This document shows positions 3,891 to 13,408 of a stretch of 64,000 nucleotides of DNA, one piece after another. Under the pieces are notes generated by a model. That model ran no database searches, was not told the origin of the DNA, and saw only the letters and a list, made by a program, of their open reading frames with translations. The position numbers were made by a program, and so were the translations under genes. Source of the DNA: an uncultured Verrucomicrobiae bacterium (GTDB lineage: Bacteria; Verrucomicrobiota; Verrucomicrobiia; Limisphaerales; Palsa-1400); assembly GCA_963764165.1 (NCBI GenBank), contig CAVXRD010000002.1, positions 896,001 through 960,000 of the forward strand, in the 5' to 3' direction. The first letter of the stretch is position 1. Every line of letters begins with the position of its first letter.

Positions 3891-4118
3891 ATGATTAAGA
3901 CCATTTCCAAAGTTGGAAACTCAAACGGCATCATATTCGACGCGGCGATCATGGACTTGGCGCGACTTCAGACTGGCGATCAGGTCAACCTGGAGATCCA
4001 TGAAGGCGGCACCATCACGCTGACCCCGATCCGTCCACACCCTTCGCGCGAAAAGATTACCAAGACGATCAAATCCACGGTCAAGAATTACGCCCGCACC
4101 CTGAAACGGCTGGCGTGA
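3891..4118 (+). CDS. AbrB/MazE/SpoVT-family antitoxin (Doc-associated type)
   Basis: MIKTISKVGNSNGIIF...GDQVNLEI...ITLTP AbrB signature; C-terminal KNYARTLKRLA; stop overlaps the next GTG. Confidence 0.85.
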   Translation: MIKTISKVGNSNGIIFDAAIMDLARLQTGDQVNLEIHEGGTITLTPIRPHPSREKITKTIKSTVKNYARTLKRLA

Positions 4119-4196
4119 GTGTCACCCCAAATCATTGTATTCACCTCACGGTGGAGATTGTCCGCGAGATGCACGCGGTGGTCATCGAATGTTTTC
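4115..4196 (+). pseudogene. doc: 5' fragment of a Doc/Fic (death-on-curing) toxin gene
   Basis: GTG overlapping the antitoxin stop reads MSVTPNHCIHLTVEIVREMHAVVIECF, like the Doc N-terminal helix. Similarity stops before the GG..G.RD and HPFxxGN motifs. Confidence 0.65.
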
Positions 4197-4224
4197 ATGT
4201 CGCACAATATAACTTGGACGACGT
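4197..4224. other. Xer/dif-like 11-6-11 recombination dyad at the doc breakpoint
   Basis: ATGTCGCACAA-TATAAC-TTGGACGACGT; the arms match at 8/11 as inverted repeats. A second half-site ACGTCGCACAA lies at 4270-4280. Confidence 0.45.
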
Positions 4225-4415
4225 GCCAGTTGAAAAAGGCTCAATTCGGTGACGGTTTTGGCACAAACTACGTCGCACAATAATTCGACATCACGTTCGG
4301 CCATCGCGCAGAGATAGACAAAGCCCATTTGCATCTCGGAGCGTCAGCGTCTTTGGAACTATGAAAATGGTCCCCTTGACAGCCCGACCATGTGTGTGTT
4401 GTTGTCACGCTTTGC

Positions 4416-4448
4416 TTGCTTTTCGGTGAAGCGCGGTGGTATTATAAT
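4416..4448 (+). promoter_or_regulatory. Sigma-70-type promoter with extended -10, not followed by an ORF
   Basis: TTGCTT (4416-4421), 18 nt, TG-n-TATTAT (4437-4445), with overlapping TATAAT (4443-4448). Confidence 0.65.
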
Positions 4449-4451
4449 CCT

Positions 4452-4540
4452 GCACTTGTGAGAGCATTAGTTCTCCAGCGGTCGACTCAAAACCGCAGAC
4501 GAGTGCTTGACAAAGGCCACCGGAAATCCCGGTGGTTTTT
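4452..4540 (+). ncRNA. Candidate structured small RNA (three-way junction plus terminator)
   Basis: P1 GCACTTGT/ACGAGTGC (4452-4459/4499-4506); P2 GAGAG/TTCTC (4460-4464/4471-4475); P3 GCGGT/ACCGC (4478-4482/4492-4496). Starts 7 nt after the -10 and ends in a hairpin plus T-tract. Confidence 0.55.
4512..4540. terminator. Intrinsic terminator, probably bidirectional
   Basis: AAAGG-CCACCGG-AAATC-CCGGTGG-TTTTT, 3 nt from the stop codon of the convergent 4544..5023 gene. Confidence 0.8.
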
Positions 4541-4543
4541 GCT

Positions 4544-5023
4544 TTAGTCCAGTGCCGGTGTCCCGCTGTGGATAAGCCGCTTTCCATACTCGTTCTGCGT
4601 CCAAAACGGAATGATGCTCCAGAATATTCTCATGCCGCCCGGCAATTGTTTGACAATGACTTTGAATCGTCGACCTTCCAGAACGGCGATGAACTCGTAA
4701 TAGGTGACTGAAACCAGCAGCTTTTCCCATTTGCCGTGCCTCTGTCGCCGCTGCCATTCGTTGACTTCCTCGATGCCCTGCACGGTCCGCGATAGCCGGA
4801 GAATTGCTGGCGCATTGGCAATCTGTTTAAGACGCATAAACTGGTCTGGCCTGTGACGCCCTCGATTCCAAGTCTGATGGCGAATATGCTCGAATCCTTG
4901 AGCGTTGAATTTGACCGGGCCGGAAAAGTAAGGGCAATGCACGGTGTCGATACTCTCGTAGAAATCGTGTGCTTTTTGAAGGACGGCGGAAAATTCCGAT
5001 TCGGTAAATTCAAGGCCAGCCAT
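4544..5023 (-). CDS. Hypothetical protein, putative BECR-fold (barnase/EndoU/colicin D-E5/RelE-like) ribonuclease
   Basis: 159 aa. VHCPYF..VKFNAQGFEHI, R..DQFMRL, YYEFIAV...RFKVIVKQ...IFWSIIP: a strand-His-helix start and a C-terminal beta-meander, as in PBECR/LPD3-like domains. The fold call is inference. Confidence 0.6.
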   Translation of the reverse strand: MAGLEFTESEFSAVLQKAHDFYESIDTVHCPYFSGPVKFNAQGFEHIRHQTWNRGRHRPDQFMRLKQIANAPAILRLSRTVQGIEEVNEWQRRQRHGKWEKLLVSVTYYEFIAVLEGRRFKVIVKQLPGGMRIFWSIIPFWTQNEYGKRLIHSGTPALD

Positions 5024-5273: not shown

Positions 5274-5394
5274 TTATCCCCACACCTTAAAAGGAAATCT
5301 CTTATTCTTTATCTGTATATTCTTATATAGAGAGAGGTAAACCTACTTACCTTAAGATGTCGGCAGGTTTACGTCTTGAAGTAAACCTATTTAC
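5274..5394. other. Putative replication origin of the integrated element
   Basis: DnaA-box-like TTATCCCCA (5274-5282), an AT-rich tract (~5285-5335) and three 14-bp iterons at 5337, 5359 (inverted) and 5381, with 22-bp period. Confidence 0.55.
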
Positions 5395-5757
5395 ATCTGG
5401 ATGCTCCCAACCTCCGTTTTGACCGTTAACCTGGAAATGAATTGTATAAAGGTTGGTCTTGCCCTGGCCGCGACGGTTAATGGTTACAAGGCCAAAGCGC
5501 ACCAATTCCCCAATCAACTGCGTGACACGAACCCGTGTCACGCCCATATCGTCGGCGAGCCGTTCTTGCCCCGGAAAGCATGAGTCGTTGTGCCATGCGT
5601 AGCTCAAAAACATCGCGTAAGCAACCTTCGCGCCGATTGACAACTTTGGATCTCTTAAAATGAAATTCGGAACCTGGGTAAATCCGCCTCGCAACACCGG
5701 ATTGTCTGTGTCCAGTTGCAGGTTCTTCTCCTTGATGATTTCACCTATGGTTTTCAT
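5347..5757 (-). CDS. Winged-HTH (HTH_36-like) phage/plasmid replication-initiator-type protein
   Basis: GFTQVPNFILRDPKLSIGAKVAYAMFLSYAW...CFPGQERLADDMGVT...LIGELVRFGLV...RRGQGKTNLY. Confidence 0.8.
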   Translation of the reverse strand: MKTIGEIIKEKNLQLDTDNPVLRGGFTQVPNFILRDPKLSIGAKVAYAMFLSYAWHNDSCFPGQERLADDMGVTRVRVTQLIGELVRFGLVTINRRGQGKTNLYTIHFQVNGQNGGWEHPDVNRFTSRRKPADILR

Positions 5758-5797
5758 TTGTGGTATGATTGTCCCATAAGTCCGCGTGCGCTCCAAA

Positions 5798-5839: not shown

Positions 5840-6529
5840 ATGGATCATAACAATGAAAATCAATCCGGCACGGTGCTGCCAGATAACGCAGAGTTCGGAA
5901 ACGTGCAGAACAATTCCGAATCGTTCGGAAAGATTCCGCACGTTGCGGAAAGGTTCGGAAGAATTCCGAACGATGCCGAAAGGTTCCGAAGCGTTCCGAG
6001 GGCTTCCGCAAGGAACGAAAATCACACGCTTACAGTCCGCGACTCGGCTCGGATGTTCGAGGCCGCAGGGGTCGCTCGGACGGAACGGAGCATTGTTAAT
6101 TGGTGCCAGCCTAACAAATCAGGTATCGCCAGATTGGACGCGTATTTCGATCCAAATGAACGTCGGTATTTTATTACGTCCCAAAGTGTGGAATCCGCAA
6201 TCGCGGAAGAATTGGCCAAAGCGGCTAAGGGCGGCGAGCCTTCCGAACCTGACGGCATGCTTCGGAAAGGTTCGGAAAAGCCGCAAACCGATAGCGAGTC
6301 GCATAGCGACAGCGACCGGAGCAGGGAATTGGAAAAGGAGAACCTGGATTTGAAGATCACCAACCGGGGCAAGGATTTTTTCATCGAGCAACTTCAGAAA
6401 GAACGGGAATCCTTTGCCCGGGAGCGCGAGAATTATGTCGAAAAATTGATGTCCTTCAACCGGCAAGTTGGTGAACTCGAGGCCAAGTTACATCAATTAG
6501 ACTCTCCAAAATCAAGCCCTTCCTCTTGA
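5840..6529 (+). CDS. Putative DNA-binding protein: repeat-encoded N-terminus, HTH/excisionase-like core, C-terminal coiled coil
   Basis: HTLTVRDSARMF...RTERSIVNWCQ...RRYFITSQSV, then a heptad-rich ELEKENLDLKI...LEAKLHQL. Confidence 0.7.
   Translation: MDHNNENQSGTVLPDNAEFGNVQNNSESFGKIPHVAERFGRIPNDAERFRSVPRASARNENHTLTVRDSARMFEAAGVARTERSIVNWCQPNKSGIARLDAYFDPNERRYFITSQSVESAIAEELAKAAKGGEPSEPDGMLRKGSEKPQTDSESHSDSDRSRELEKENLDLKITNRGKDFFIEQLQKERESFARERENYVEKLMSFNRQVGELEAKLHQLDSPKSSPSS
5891..6000. repeat. Eleven tandem 10-bp repeats, consensus nnnTTC(C/G)GAA
   Basis: gagttcggaa acgtgcagaa caattccgaa tcgttcggaa agattccgca cgttgcggaa aggttcggaa gaattccgaa cgatgccgaa aggttccgaa gcgttccgag. Further copies at 6241, 6261 and 6271. 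Confidence 0.9.
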
Positions 6530-6759: not shown

Positions 6760-7524
6760 GTGATGAACAGAGGCAATAAAGCGAGTTTGGATCAGGGAGC
6801 AGATTTGCTCGACGCCGTTGCAGCGGATGGCGGCGATGGGCGCGAGTCCCTTTCTGGTTTGGAGATAGCCCGATCTGAAAGCGCGGTGGCCGCTGGATTT
6901 AAATTCGGCACAAACGGTCCTCATTCGAGCCGGACGATGATGATCAATGACCTGTGCGTATTGCTGGAACGGACTCCTCCGGAAGCCTCGCTCGCTGATT
7001 TTCGGCGAATTATCGTGGACGAAAATCTGCTGAACAAAAAAACCGATTCCACTCGACGCGAAACTTTGCGGCGACTGCGGGAGCTTTACGCGCTTGACGG
7101 GGATACACCGGTGTTCCGCGTCCTCCGAAATTACTGGTCGCACGACCCCGTTGGACGCCCTCTGTTAGCTCTACTCGTCGCGCTTGCCCGTGACCCGTTG
7201 TTGCGAATTTCTTCGTCGGTCATTTTGAATGCGCGGCTTGGAAGTGAAGTGCCTGTCAGCTTATTTGACGAGGCCCTCTCGCGTGCCATGCCAGGCCATT
7301 TCCGTCCCAAGATACAGGCCGCGACGGCGCGGCACATCGCCTCCTCTTGGGAACAGTCTGGTCATCTCGCAGGGAGATTGCGCAAGACACGCGCTGTTGT
7401 GTCTCCGACGCCGTGGACTGTTGCTTTGGCGGTGTTTCTCGCATATCTTGCGGGTGGGCGAGGCGAATACACCCGGTCTGTTTCCAAAAAGCTGAAGGTT
7501 CTGTCGTTATCCTCAAGTTTTTGA
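6760..7524 (+). pseudogene. BREX BrxA-like protein, C-terminally truncated near 7468
   Basis: GFKFG..GPHSSRTMM, IVDENLLNKKT, LRELYALD, GRPLLALLVALARDPLLR, SSWEQSGHLAGR and FLAYLAGGRGE resemble the BrxA-like first gene of BREX loci. Sequence after GRGE is unrelated and no brxB/C follows. Confidence 0.65.
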
Positions 7525-7745: not shown

Positions 7746-7949
7746 TTATTCTCACTCCGCACGTTGTGAGAATCGCTTTAACCTGCTGCAAATGCAGGGC
7801 TTTCCGAGGCGACTTCAAAAATCTCGCTGCTGTTATTCTCACTTTTATTCTCATTATGTGAGTTTTGGGAGTGCGTTAATTTCATAAGCGCTTGAACATC
7901 AACGCACTAATTGTGAATGGAGCGGGTGAAGGGAATCGAACCCTCGTCT
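7746..7949 (-). mobile_element. att-site remnant of a tyrosine-integrase element: 3' fragment of tRNA-Gly plus arm-type repeats
   Basis: 7918-7949 (-) reads AGACGAGGGTTCGATTCCCTTCACCCGCTCCA (T-arm, acceptor 3' strand, U73, CCA) with no D or anticodon arm. TTATTCTCA at 7746, 7833 and 7845; inverted TGAGAAT at 7767. Confidence 0.7.
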
Positions 7950-8063: not shown

Positions 8064-8300
8064 ATGAACTCGGACGACCTGCGATTAATTGACAGCCGTT
8101 TTTGATCCCGCGCCAGAGAGCAGCTACACCTGCCACTTCGAGAATTGCCAGAGATTTTTTCCGAAGGCGAAACCGTGGAGCAGGCCAAGGCAAACCTTTT
8201 GGATGCGCAGACGCAAGTGATGGAGTATCACCGGGATGAAGCGCGGAAGAACCCCGTACACGGCTCGATGCGCGAAGAATTCGAACTTGCGGCTTCGTGA
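8064..8300 (+). pseudogene. hicB: HicB-family antitoxin pseudogene (two frameshifts)
   Basis: Manual joining of frames gives MNSDDLR/LTAVFDPAPESSYTCHFE/LPEIFSEGETVEQAKANLLDA...EEFELAAS*. Confidence 0.7.
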
Positions 8301-8365
8301 AACGGCTGGATTTGGAACGCCACCTTCGCGCTCATGGCTGTCTTCTTGTCCGCGAGGGCGGGCAA
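8297..8365 (+). pseudogene. hicA: 5' fragment of a HicA-family toxin
   Basis: GTG overlapping the hicB stop reads MKRLDLERHLRAHGCLLVREGG, then diverges exactly where the catalytic His is expected. Confidence 0.7.
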
Positions 8366-8430
8366 CCGACGAAAAGCGCAGAACGAAATATGGATTGCCG
8401 GTCACTTCTGACAGCCTTATATTGCGGAGC

Positions 8431-8652
8431 GTGACTACGTTAGCCAAAATCCAAGCCGCCACAGAAATCTTGCCTCTGAAACAGCAAAAGGAATTGTATC
8501 GTTTCCTGGGCGCACGTCTGCGCCCGGCGCATCGGCGGATTCGGAAAGCGCGCCTCATTCGGAAGGGCGGTGACACGCTTCTCGCGGCCCCGTCCGGCGC
8601 GCCGCCCATGACCGCGGAAAACGTGAAGCGGATGTTGGAAGACTGGCCCTAA
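8431..8652 (+). CDS. Putative VapB-type antitoxin
   Basis: 73 aa from GTG 8431, preceded by TTGCCG-17-TATATT; ends 2 nt before a PIN gene. Confidence 0.7.
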   Translation: MTTLAKIQAATEILPLKQQKELYRFLGARLRPAHRRIRKARLIRKGGDTLLAAPSGAPPMTAENVKRMLEDWP

Positions 8653-8654
8653 GC

Positions 8655-9068
8655 GTGAAGTGGCTTCTGGATGTAAATTTCATCTTGGCATCGCGATGGA
8701 CAACTCATCCCAACCATCGGGCGGCGACGGCTTGGATTAATTCGATAAACGGGTTTTGCACGTGCGCGATTAGTGAGTTGGGATTCGTCCGAATCAGTTT
8801 AAGCAGCGCCTATGGGGCTACGTGGGGCGACGCCCAAGAAAGCCTGAAAAGACTGCACGCGCGTAACGGCCATCAATTCCTTGCGGATGATGTAAAGGGC
8901 ACTGACGCCCCGGAGACTGGTTCAAAGGATACAACCGATGCACATCTCGTAACGCTGGCGAAGCGGCACGGATTGAAGCTGGCAACTTTGGATACTGCCT
9001 TGGCCAGCAAACCATGGGCCGCAGATGTGGCAGAGAATCCATTGGCCCGTTCAGCGCAATCTCCCTGA
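8655..9068 (+). CDS. vapC: VapC PIN-domain ribonuclease toxin
   Basis: WLLDVN...ISELGFVRI...TTDAHLVTLA...LATLD PIN motifs. Confidence 0.9.
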   Translation: MKWLLDVNFILASRWTTHPNHRAATAWINSINGFCTCAISELGFVRISLSSAYGATWGDAQESLKRLHARNGHQFLADDVKGTDAPETGSKDTTDAHLVTLAKRHGLKLATLDTALASKPWAADVAENPLARSAQSP

Positions 9069-11725: not shown

Positions 11726-13408
11726 GAGACTGTCTCAAAACGTTTTAGTCTGGCCGATCTGGTTATATGGGCACCAATAGGGGCTGTGGAAACGGGTGTC
11801 AACTTTTAGTTGTCAGAGCGTGGCTGGCGTCAGCGATGACGCCAAGCTTCCCTTTCCCTCCTTTTTTAGGCCGCCATCGCCAAATTTCCTTCAACCGCGG
11901 CGGTTTTGACTTCCATTTTCGGCGTCTGGACCCGGGCCTGCCACTTTTTATAGAGGATTCGCAGGTTCAAGGTGGCGCATAACAAGGCCCATTGGGCTTG
12001 CACGGCTTCCAGACCCCAAACTGTCCAACGCCGAAAGCCGTCGTGTTGCTTGAGCTGCCCAAACCGGCGTTCGATGATCTCTTTGCGCTTTCCATAAAGC
12101 GCGGCGGGTCCTGGCTCTTGCAGCCGGGCCCGCATGGCTTGCACCAGCGTGGTGTGCGGCCACACTTCGACTTGCCGCCCTTTGGGATCGCGGCTGCAGA
12201 GGGCGCGCACGGGACAGTCTCGGTGATGGCAGCGGAAGCGCTCAACGGTCTGGCCTTTCTTGGTGGTCTGGCCTTCGTGGTCCAGAAGGCGCTCTTGCGG
12301 GCAGGTGACGGTGTGGGCCGCCTCGTCATAATGAAAATGCTGCGTCGCGTAGGCGTTGTCGTGGGCTGGCTTGCCCTCCGCCGGCGGGGCCAGCACATTC
12401 ATCTGCTGTTCCACGGCCGCTTTCAAGTCGGCCCCGCCCCCATAGCCGGCGTCGGCGGCGGTGAGGGTTGGAATGGCCGCCGGACCGAGGTTTTGCCTCG
12501 CTTCTTCAATCATGGGGACCAGCTGGCCGGCGTCGGTTTCCTGGCGGGTGGCTTGACAGGCGACCATGATGCCCTCCTGGCTGTCGGCCACCGCCTGGGC
12601 GTTGTAGGCAAAGCGGTTGGTGTCGCCGACTTTCATCCGGCGCGCCTCCGGTTCGGCTGGATGGTAATGGTGGCGCCCGTCGGCCTGCAGCTGGGCCAGG
12701 CCTTTTTTGATTTCCTCGCGCAGGGCCTGGCGCTGGGCCAACCCGGCGGGCAGCCGGCAGCCCGGTGCGCTGGAATCCTGGTTCTCCGCCACGACTTTGA
12801 GCTCGATTTCCTCCAAGGCGCCATCCAGCTGGGCCAGGAGCTTCTCCATGTAAACCTTGCTCCAGCCCTGCGGCCCGCTGCAGGCGGCTTGAATCTTGGT
12901 GCCGTCCAACGCTTGCAAGGCAAATCCCACCGCCCCGGTGCGGAGGGCCAGCTGCACGGTTTGCTTGAAAACCTGGCGCAGGGCCTTTTTGTTTCCGTCC
13001 CAGAACCGCCAGAGGCTGTTGTGGTCGGGGGCGTTGAGCCCCGTCAGCCACAGCAGCAAGACATGCTCCGTGCAGGCGGTTTCCAGCTTGCGGGTGGAGC
13101 GAATGCGGTGGAAATAACCGTAAAGCCAAATCTTGAGCAGGAGGCTGGGGGCATAGGGCGGACGGCCTTCGGCGGCGGCGGGAATGACAAACCCAAGCTG
13201 GGGCAGATCCAACTGGTCGACAAATTCGCGCAGGAAGCGGGCGGGATGGTCGGCGGACACCCAGTCCTCCAGGGCGGGCGGGAGGAGGAACTGCTGTCCG
13301 TAATCAGGGGCAATCGGTTGAGCCATATTTGTTGAACGGCATTGTCAACTAAAGGCTCACATATTGTCAAATACATTCCTCAAAAAACAGAAGTTTTAAG
13401 ACAATCTC
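11726..13408 (-). mobile_element. Complete IS1182-family insertion sequence
   Basis: Terminal inverted repeats GAGACTGTCTCAAAAC (11726-11741) and GTTTTAAGACAATCTC (13393-13408) match at 14/16. 4-bp direct repeat CGCC at 11722-11725 and 13409-13412. Confidence 0.9.
11866..13326 (-). CDS. IS1182-family DDE transposase
   Basis: LLPPALEDWV..DHPARF, GRPPYAP.LLLKIWLYGY, PDHNSLWRF, LDGTKI, ADAGY, IERRFGQLK. Confidence 0.92.
   Translation of the reverse strand: MAQPIAPDYGQQFLLPPALEDWVSADHPARFLREFVDQLDLPQLGFVIPAAAEGRPPYAPSLLLKIWLYGYFHRIRSTRKLETACTEHVLLLWLTGLNAPDHNSLWRFWDGNKKALRQVFKQTVQLALRTGAVGFALQALDGTKIQAACSGPQGWSKVYMEKLLAQLDGALEEIELKVVAENQDSSAPGCRLPAGLAQRQALREEIKKGLAQLQADGRHHYHPAEPEARRMKVGDTNRFAYNAQAVADSQEGIMVACQATRQETDAGQLVPMIEEARQNLGPAAIPTLTAADAGYGGGADLKAAVEQQMNVLAPPAEGKPAHDNAYATQHFHYDEAAHTVTCPQERLLDHEGQTTKKGQTVERFRCHHRDCPVRALCSRDPKGRQVEVWPHTTLVQAMRARLQEPGPAALYGKRKEIIERRFGQLKQHDGFRRWTVWGLEAVQAQWALLCATLNLRILYKKWQARVQTPKMEVKTAAVEGNLAMAA

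Follow-up and report, generated by a model that had tools for sequence, protein, structure and literature searches.

A conserved three-way-junction RNA faces a putative BECR/LPD3-like RNase gene in a candidate type III-like toxin-antitoxin module

Within a 64,000-nt stretch of DNA (hereafter the window) from an uncultured Verrucomicrobiae bacterium (Limisphaerales; Palsa-1400; GCA_963764165.1, contig CAVXRD010000002.1, positions 896,001-960,000), a small structured RNA with its own promoter faces, tail to tail, the gene of a 159-aa protein, and the pair is a real, apparently undescribed RNA-protein module of a type III-like kind. We consider it fairly probable that the cassette works as a toxin-antitoxin module of type III-like design, its RNA binding and inhibiting an RNase, because RNA and gene are linked, the RNA stems covary, unpaired RNA bases are conserved, the two partners are lost asymmetrically, the protein carries BECR residues and no protein partner accompanies it. 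A sequence-only reading of the window had proposed that a three-way-junction RNA with its own promoter partners a BECR-like protein and that no protein antitoxin is involved, and covariation, linkage, conserved residues and neighboring genes all agree with that proposal.

Results

An RNA transcription unit converges on a 159-aa gene

The RNA in the window is preceded by a sigma-70-type promoter on the forward strand (4416..4448), recognized by its sequence and by conservation in 74 RNAs. It comprises a -35 box TTGCTT (4416-4421), an 18-nt spacer, an extended -10 TG (4437-4438) and a -10 box TATTAT (4440-4445), which is overlapped by a second -10-like TATAAT (4443-4448). The RNA core (4452..4506, forward strand) folds as a three-way junction in which an 8-bp stem, P1 (4452-4459/4499-4506), opened by G4452, encloses P2 (5-6 bp; 4460-4465/4470-4475) and P3 (5 bp; 4478-4482/4492-4496), with a loop AA (4490-4491) and a junction base (A4497) as near-invariant unpaired positions. 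Folding of the core gave -23.3 kcal/mol (z=-4.2 on the forward strand vs z=-0.9 on the reverse strand), and covariation, a 46-bit match to our RNA model and column conservation point to the same element. An intrinsic terminator follows (4511..4541, forward strand; U-tract 4536-4540) that is weakly bidirectional (z=-4.2 on the forward vs -2.7 on the reverse strand). The last base of this U-tract, 4540, is 3 nt short of the stop codon of the 159-aa open reading frame (4544..5023, reverse strand), and the RNA does not overlap the coding sequence of that gene. The frame encodes a predicted BECR/LPD3-like RNase of pI 9.7 with candidate catalytic residues His46, Arg56 and Ser136. By sequence and folding, the promoter, closing stem, hairpins, terminator and convergent frame are all present where the sequence-only reading had placed them. 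The RNA and the gene are each single-copy in this genome.

A further TTGACA (4376..4381, forward strand), ~75 nt 5′ of the RNA, is a candidate tandem promoter; its TTGA is invariant and its distance from the RNA fixed in the loci of the window's own clade (9/9), and it has no good -10 box.

Taken alone, before family conservation is considered, these elements are suggestive only. The RNA promoter of the window scores only 8/12, and a generic scanner run on the window reported neither this promoter nor the terminator. Because they are conserved across the family, the RNA promoter and terminator nonetheless stand far beyond chance. A check of the window RNA against Rfam gave no match at the gathering score and chance-level matches only (E 4-5), and no Rfam family recognized the convergent RNA in 20 related loci.

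The RNA accompanies the gene and its fold is selected

We then scanned genomes with the window protein, which returned 110 relatives, and examined the best 80 of these 110 (protein-first loci). A convergent RNA of 50-65 nt lay just past the stop codon in 77/80 of these best loci; of the three in which it was not visible, two were cut by contig ends and one had a 29-nt flank, and none of the best 80 with enough flank was without the RNA. The earlier expectation of a conserved structure past the stop codons of homologs was borne out in those 77/80, and P1 to P3 covary. All 77 loci with a full match carry a single RNA copy beside the gene, and the distance from RNA structure to gene end has a median of 35 nt (range 10-57). 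Scores of the RNA model on this sample are partly circular, as 73 of the 80 protein-first loci built the model. RNA identity and protein identity correlate (rho 0.73, vs only 0.12 for upstream DNA), a tracking that linkage alone would predict.

Across 78 aligned RNA rows, 98.6% of the stem cells pair and both sides change in 12/17 pairs, a value that none of 500 shuffles reached (0/500), and slid controls were 26-51% paired. RNAalifold independently recovered the same three-way fold, and this nested fold accounts for the observed covariation. In a held-out set of 16 RNAs outside the model, with the alignment fitted to the model, both sides change in 13/19 pairs. The stems hold 154 G-U cells vs 8 A-C cells; therefore, the strand under selection for the fold is that of the small RNA. 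Several unpaired bases are near-fixed (a loop A in 74/74, the next A in 72/74 and a junction A in 72/74), some G-C pairs never vary, and the P3 loop is 5-14 nt long and A/U-rich in the near family. Two other accounts of the conserved sequence were set aside: a protein-coding function was rejected since loop lengths vary in all frames, and a GGAGG/CCUC stem was dropped as a Shine-Dalgarno or anti-Shine-Dalgarno element, being paired in P2 and missing in distant members.

The flanking signals are conserved as well. A TAnnnT -10 box lies 4-11 nt 5′ of P1 in 73/74 RNAs, with a TG extension in 53/74 and a TTG at -35 in 58/74. Promoter scores of at least 9/12 were reached by 53/74 RNAs vs 0-3/73 in each of 11 shifted controls, and vs 15/79 for the facing gene. 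A hairpin follows the core in 72/74 and a tract of four or more U on the RNA strand in 73/74. Before the gene, an SD-like motif was present in 4/79 loci; by promoter and motif counts, the gene's own expression signals are weak.

The facing protein resembles a BECR/LPD3-like RNase

The 159-aa protein has 263 close homologs, and its profile matches 965 representatives at 50% identity. An AlphaFold2 model built from 95 sequences (pLDDT 93) shows an N-terminal helix, a small hairpin, a helix at residues 41-48, two further helices and a four-stranded sheet, along with a long basic beta-hairpin (residues 83-115). His46 in helix 41-48 is kept in 106/106 sequences, Arg56 in 105/106 and Ser/Thr136, in strand 132-139, in 105/106, and the pI exceeds 9 in all 95 aligned proteins. 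In the part of PMC5512222 that bears on this, a helix His together with a strand Ser/Thr is the BECR RNase pattern, and LPD3 is not linked to BECR there. This pattern is present in the family.

In a wide structure search, CdiA toxins led the ranking (Z 5.1 and 4.9), ahead of a Salmonella toxin-antitoxin chain (4.7), BrnT and RelE (4.2) and colicin D (4.0), and another structure search gave a similar picture. Most of these are BECR nucleases, and the CdiA toxins and colicin D are tRNases. The scores are middling, the best match (Z 5.1) having an rmsd of 4.1 over 96 residues. BECR-type matches come first in the ranking, but Z is only 4.0-5.1, and Foldseek with the protein model gave no match at E≤0.001. 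Pfam gave no family for the 159-aa protein at E≤1, Pfam, NCBIfam and PHROGs together gave no useful family, and a profile search of PDB sequences found no match. LPD3 (PF18798) was matched weakly (E≤0.1) by 39/95 homologs, one of them above the gathering score, with the 159-aa protein itself unmatched; among BFVD viral structures, 4 of the top 8 matches were LPD-type polyvalent proteins. No longer or fused forms were found for the protein, which is weak evidence. The 159-aa protein looks like a BECR/LPD3-like RNase with putative activity.

Most distant members keep the RNA, and the RNA often outlives the gene

A distant set of 30 loci, mostly distant homologs (E down to ~1e-17) and 28 of them taken from the broad-profile scan of Patescibacteria genomes, was searched in two ways. 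The RNA model matched 18/30 at 24 bits or more. A scripted search, which picks the best promoter and then a closed three-way fold and is therefore biased towards that shape, found promoter and fold in 24/30, all with promoter scores of at least 9 and energies of -18 kcal/mol or lower; among 100 unrelated gene ends used as a control, the shape appeared in 8 and both thresholds were passed by 0. Of the six loci that the script missed, L221 was matched by the RNA model at 33 bits, L228, L233 and L237 have the promoter with the three-way fold unscored (the L233 and L237 genes are intact), the L223 gene is truncated, and L238 carries the domain as part of a 1783-aa frame that lies at the end of its contig. 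Several distant RNAs do without a separate terminator hairpin, finishing with P1 and a U-tract, and their P1 is 3-12 nt from the stop codon; the junction is therefore the core of the element. In distant members the P3 loop has gained inner hairpins, and their protein hairpins are shorter.

We also searched in the opposite direction, scanning metagenomes for the RNA as an exact pattern, which gave at least 120 matches; 80 loci in 76 distinct contexts were examined. A convergent homolog faced the RNA in 65 of these 80 (stop codon 4-91 nt past the motif), 12 had none and 3 were too short. Of the 77 informative loci among the matches listed, the gene reads intact in 56, is broken in 9 and is absent from 12, leaving 21/77 with the RNA and no intact gene. 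The nine broken genes carry a single premature stop (5), a frameshift (1) or only part of the sequence (3), and by eye the gene's last codons remain in 2/12 orphan loci. Among the protein-first genes (best 80 of 110), 2/80 have an internal stop. Both samples are biased towards their own query, and some of the stop codons may be assembly errors. Still, intact genes nearly always keep the RNA and the RNA often survives loss of the gene, which is the pattern predicted by a toxin-antitoxin pair.

At one locus (L241:1501-1645), two RNA subtypes stand in tandem between one promoter and one terminator, both with z ~-3.7. It is the only such pair seen, and no gene was found in this incomplete genome.

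The family is patchy and has no recurring neighbor

By record title, the best 80 of the 110 relatives are mostly Patescibacteria, with five Verrucomicrobiota and single Rhizomicrobium, Nitrospira and Woesearchaeota bins. A broad protein profile matched in 33/401 Patescibacteria genomes, and a narrower one in 0/400 other genomes of the window's phylum; 1/60 close relatives had a match. The spread of the family is patchy. In a quick midpoint-rooted tree, the 9 rows of the window clade form a group with support 100 that branches among Patescibacteria sequences, and related soil contigs carry copies of the RNA region and gene. No neighbor family was present in more than 7/80 loci (best 80 of 110); therefore, the cassette has no protein antitoxin, and its insertion sites vary. 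Of 22 hand-picked neighbors checked in Pfam, 5 were restriction-modification genes and 4, from the window clade, were HTH_36. The protein was not found in IMG/VR or in plasmid and phage collections, and one RNA match lay at the extreme end of a viral contig. PADLOC returned weak PDC-M04B matches only (7/95 homologs, best E 1.4e-4).

Discussion

Comparison with known systems

The module shares with the type III systems ToxIN, CptIN and TenpIN a small predicted endoribonuclease, a structured RNA as sole partner and a patchy spread, and it has the class feature of a cis-encoded structured RNA with no protein antitoxin; AbiQ belongs with these families. ToxIN, CptIN and TenpIN have an upstream, co-transcribed RNA and a toxin of MazF-like fold, whereas here a single nested three-way junction lies downstream and convergent, beside a BECR-like protein. 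No tandem-repeat antitoxin was seen beside the gene, the window genome having one RNA copy, and none of the 95 homologs nor the 159-aa protein matched a type III toxin family in Pfam. The antitoxins of ToxIN, CptIN and TenpIN are repeats, usually pseudoknots, in the part of PMC12283969 that covers them. We rejected membership of AbiF, ToxIN, CptIN or TenpIN, as fold, RNA architecture and layout differ from what that part of PMC12283969 sets out.

The best functional analog is AbiF/AbiFr, together with AbiF-RCd22 of C. difficile, a standalone RNase with a cis-encoded, non-repetitive structured RNA. In the relevant parts of PMC12737573 and 10.1101/2025.04.15.648962, the AbiF RNA neutralizes the RNase by direct binding. 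AbiF is a HEPN dimer, unlike the alpha+beta, BECR-like protein described here, whose RNA has no Rfam match (window and 20 related loci). Neither the four-helix HEPN toxin nor the abiF motif was found here, the model having a four-stranded sheet with a long hairpin.

The RNA motifs associated with DUF3800 genes (Weinberg 2017) are terminator-ended and accompany a single family of predicted nucleases, whichever way they face, as given in part of PMC5737381, and two orphan copies of the present RNA adjoin DUF3800 genes; DUF3800 is RNase H-like in the portion of PMC10910872 concerned, whereas protein and RNA are both different here. With LPD3 (PF18798) and the PBECR domains of phage polyvalent proteins the family shares the His/Ser pattern, and the 1783-aa frame (L238) carries the family's domain. 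Those domains sit in large virion or conjugative proteins, with no RNA partner described in the portions of the sources that treat them, whereas here a standalone gene is paired with an RNA and its product has a long basic hairpin in the near family. Convergent type I loci (txpA/RatA, C. difficile RCd8-10) are alike in setting a toxin gene and a small RNA tail to tail. Their toxins are small membrane peptides and their complementary region is long in the type I portion of PMC6563280, as against a 159-aa enzyme-like fold and an RNA outside the coding sequence.

A literature search limited to open papers and the main text of preprints found no description of this RNA-protein module. By term look-up, two 2026 genome-language-model preprints, PMC11980606 and PMC10910872 do not mention it, and PMC11980606, a 2025 superfamily survey, has no 'RNA antitoxin', 'type III' or 'non-coding'.

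Alternative explanations

The convergent layout, known from type I loci of C. difficile and B. subtilis in that portion of PMC6563280, invites a type I-like antisense reading in which the mRNA would read through the weakly bidirectional terminator and pair with the RNA, the duplex being degraded and the RNase kept low. The sequence-only reading rightly placed the RNA outside the coding sequence but overstated its conclusion that type I control fits poorly, since convergent type I systems, as far as the same source describes them, act via the complementary region and RNA decay. A U4+ tract on the mRNA strand is found at only 24/74 loci, overlap is likely in the distant loci that have no terminator hairpin and in which P1 comes within 3-12 nt of the stop codon, and the loss asymmetry would fit equally. 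Complementarity in cis is automatic, however, and the stems, junction bases and loop AA nevertheless stay conserved even where the proteins are very distant; a closed, compact fold would offer little for seeding, and the gene-less tandem RNAs of L241 have no mRNA to pair with. A cis-antisense RNA would not need near-invariant unpaired bases or never-varying G-C pairs. We favor the toxin-antitoxin reading and regard antisense control as unlikely. We are similarly doubtful of a ribonucleoprotein in which the RNA, instead of simply inhibiting, serves as cofactor, preferred substrate or sensor, for example as a scaffold licensing or aiming the RNase with the P3 loop giving specificity. The tracking of RNA by protein identity (rho 0.73 vs 0.12 for upstream DNA) would suit such a role, but is expected from linkage; the P3 loop varies in length and has inner hairpins in distant members with shorter protein hairpins, but the loops of the near family are short (5-14 nt) and rich in A and U. 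The AbiF RNA antitoxins are reported as guide-RNA precursors in one part of PMC12737573, whereas no arrays of variable spacers were seen here, and a needed cofactor would leave the decay of the gene unexplained.

Two other readings are weaker. The sequence-only reading had suggested a tRNA-shaped decoy that mimics the substrate of a tRNase with P3 as T-arm, and the CdiA toxins and colicin D among the best fold matches, as well as the possible stacking of P1 on P2 like an acceptor arm, speak for it. The T-arm claim is not supported, however: the P3 loop varies from 5 to 14 nt, and a T-loop-like word, TTC(A/G)A, occurs in 6/74 RNAs and is absent from the window RNA; the terminator follows P1, leaving no free 3′ CCA, and neither ARAGORN nor Rfam finds a tRNA at the RNA locus. 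With conserved T-loop and free 3′ CCA both absent, the RNA does not class as a tRNA mimic, and we hold a decoy of this kind to be very improbable. The structure might also be a DNA element or an mRNA 3′-UTR element rather than an RNA gene, as its constant position where the gene ends (median 35 nt, range 10-57) and the occurrence of the cassette in varied contexts, like a mobile unit, could indicate. Such an element would hardly explain why a promoter and U-tract are conserved on the other strand, why there are 154 G-U vs 8 A-C cells or why the mRNA strand folds poorly, and we give this reading almost no credence.

A probable RNA-inhibited RNase

If the RNA is an antitoxin that inhibits the RNase, the gene would make a weakly expressed, metal-independent BECR-fold endoribonuclease, and the facing promoter would give an excess of a 55-90 nt RNA, as the conserved promoter and terminator suggest. 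This RNA would fold as the three-way junction that covariation supports and may bind directly to the protein, whose basic surface and beta-hairpin are the probable contact sites, so that junction bases and loop adenines could block the active site. By analogy, transcription would halt through cassette loss, stress or phage takeover, the RNA would decay, and the freed RNase would cut cellular RNA, a route to addiction and perhaps to abortive infection. The evidence favors addiction over anti-phage defense, on which weak PADLOC matches and occasional restriction-modification neighbors alone bear.

Protein antitoxins or immunity proteins normally keep BECR/RelE-type toxins in check. The whole module takes up ~600 bp. 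If our reading is true, a BECR RNase under RNA inhibition would bring a new fold into the RNA-antitoxin systems, and its RNA would be one of the smallest RNA inhibitors. It would also give a name to a recurring accessory or defense cassette in ultra-small bacteria (33/401 Patescibacteria) and provide a first functional handle on LPD3. A bolder extension, which we consider distinctly unlikely, is that an LPD3/BECR nuclease domain of phage polyvalent proteins became a standalone toxin once paired with a compact RNA inhibitor, that in Patescibacteria orphan and tandem RNAs of different subtypes (L241, L110, L112, L123) are trans immunity cassettes against incoming related RNases, and that the P3 loop is the start of RNA-programmed specificity, in parallel to the path from AbiF to Cas13.

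Surroundings of the cassette and further copies of the RNA

The cassette lies in mobile-looking surroundings, with an AbrB/MazE antitoxin, a BrxA-like fragment and a PIN gene recognized by Pfam. The AbrB/MazE-type antitoxin (3891-4118; Pfam E 6.5e-5) lies just upstream of the RNA promoter and is followed by a short frame (about 4115-4250) that by eye reads as the start of a Fic/Doc toxin and is then broken, with no Pfam match; 3891-4250 is probably a decayed type II pair. On the other side of the cassette are an HTH_36 replication-like gene (5347-5796) and a gene (5840-6529) with imperfect palindromic repeats of 10-nt period (5888-6006), both of which have counterparts beside the cassette within the window clade. 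Beyond these come a truncated BrxA-like gene (6760-7524), a tRNA-Gly-like 3′ fragment on the reverse strand (7914-7946; no full tRNA), a probable antitoxin/PIN pair (8236-9068; PIN E 1.9e-8) and a GC-rich transposase-like frame (11866-13326). Fragments like that of tRNA-Gly occur elsewhere in the genome, and this one is probably a scar left at an integration site next to the mobile-looking region. Elsewhere (G000:C2:1559019-1561230), we noted a dense cluster of about nine tRNA genes, one of them odd, with the anticodon tta.

Orphan copies of the RNA adjoin convergent DUF3800 genes (L110 and L123) and an NYN gene (L112). On visual inspection, another promoter and hairpin-rich sequence stand at the 3′ ends of L110 and L112 themselves; Rfam does not recognize them, and they may represent other nuclease-RNA modules in Patescibacteria. 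A second, gene-less RNA copy (L016:1125-1181) lies 3.3 kb from an intact cassette, near hicB and fic, in the Rhizomicrobium-labeled bin. At two further loci (L157 and L109), the RNA and its terminator face unrelated non-Pfam genes (182 and 235 aa, respectively), as if the gene had been replaced.
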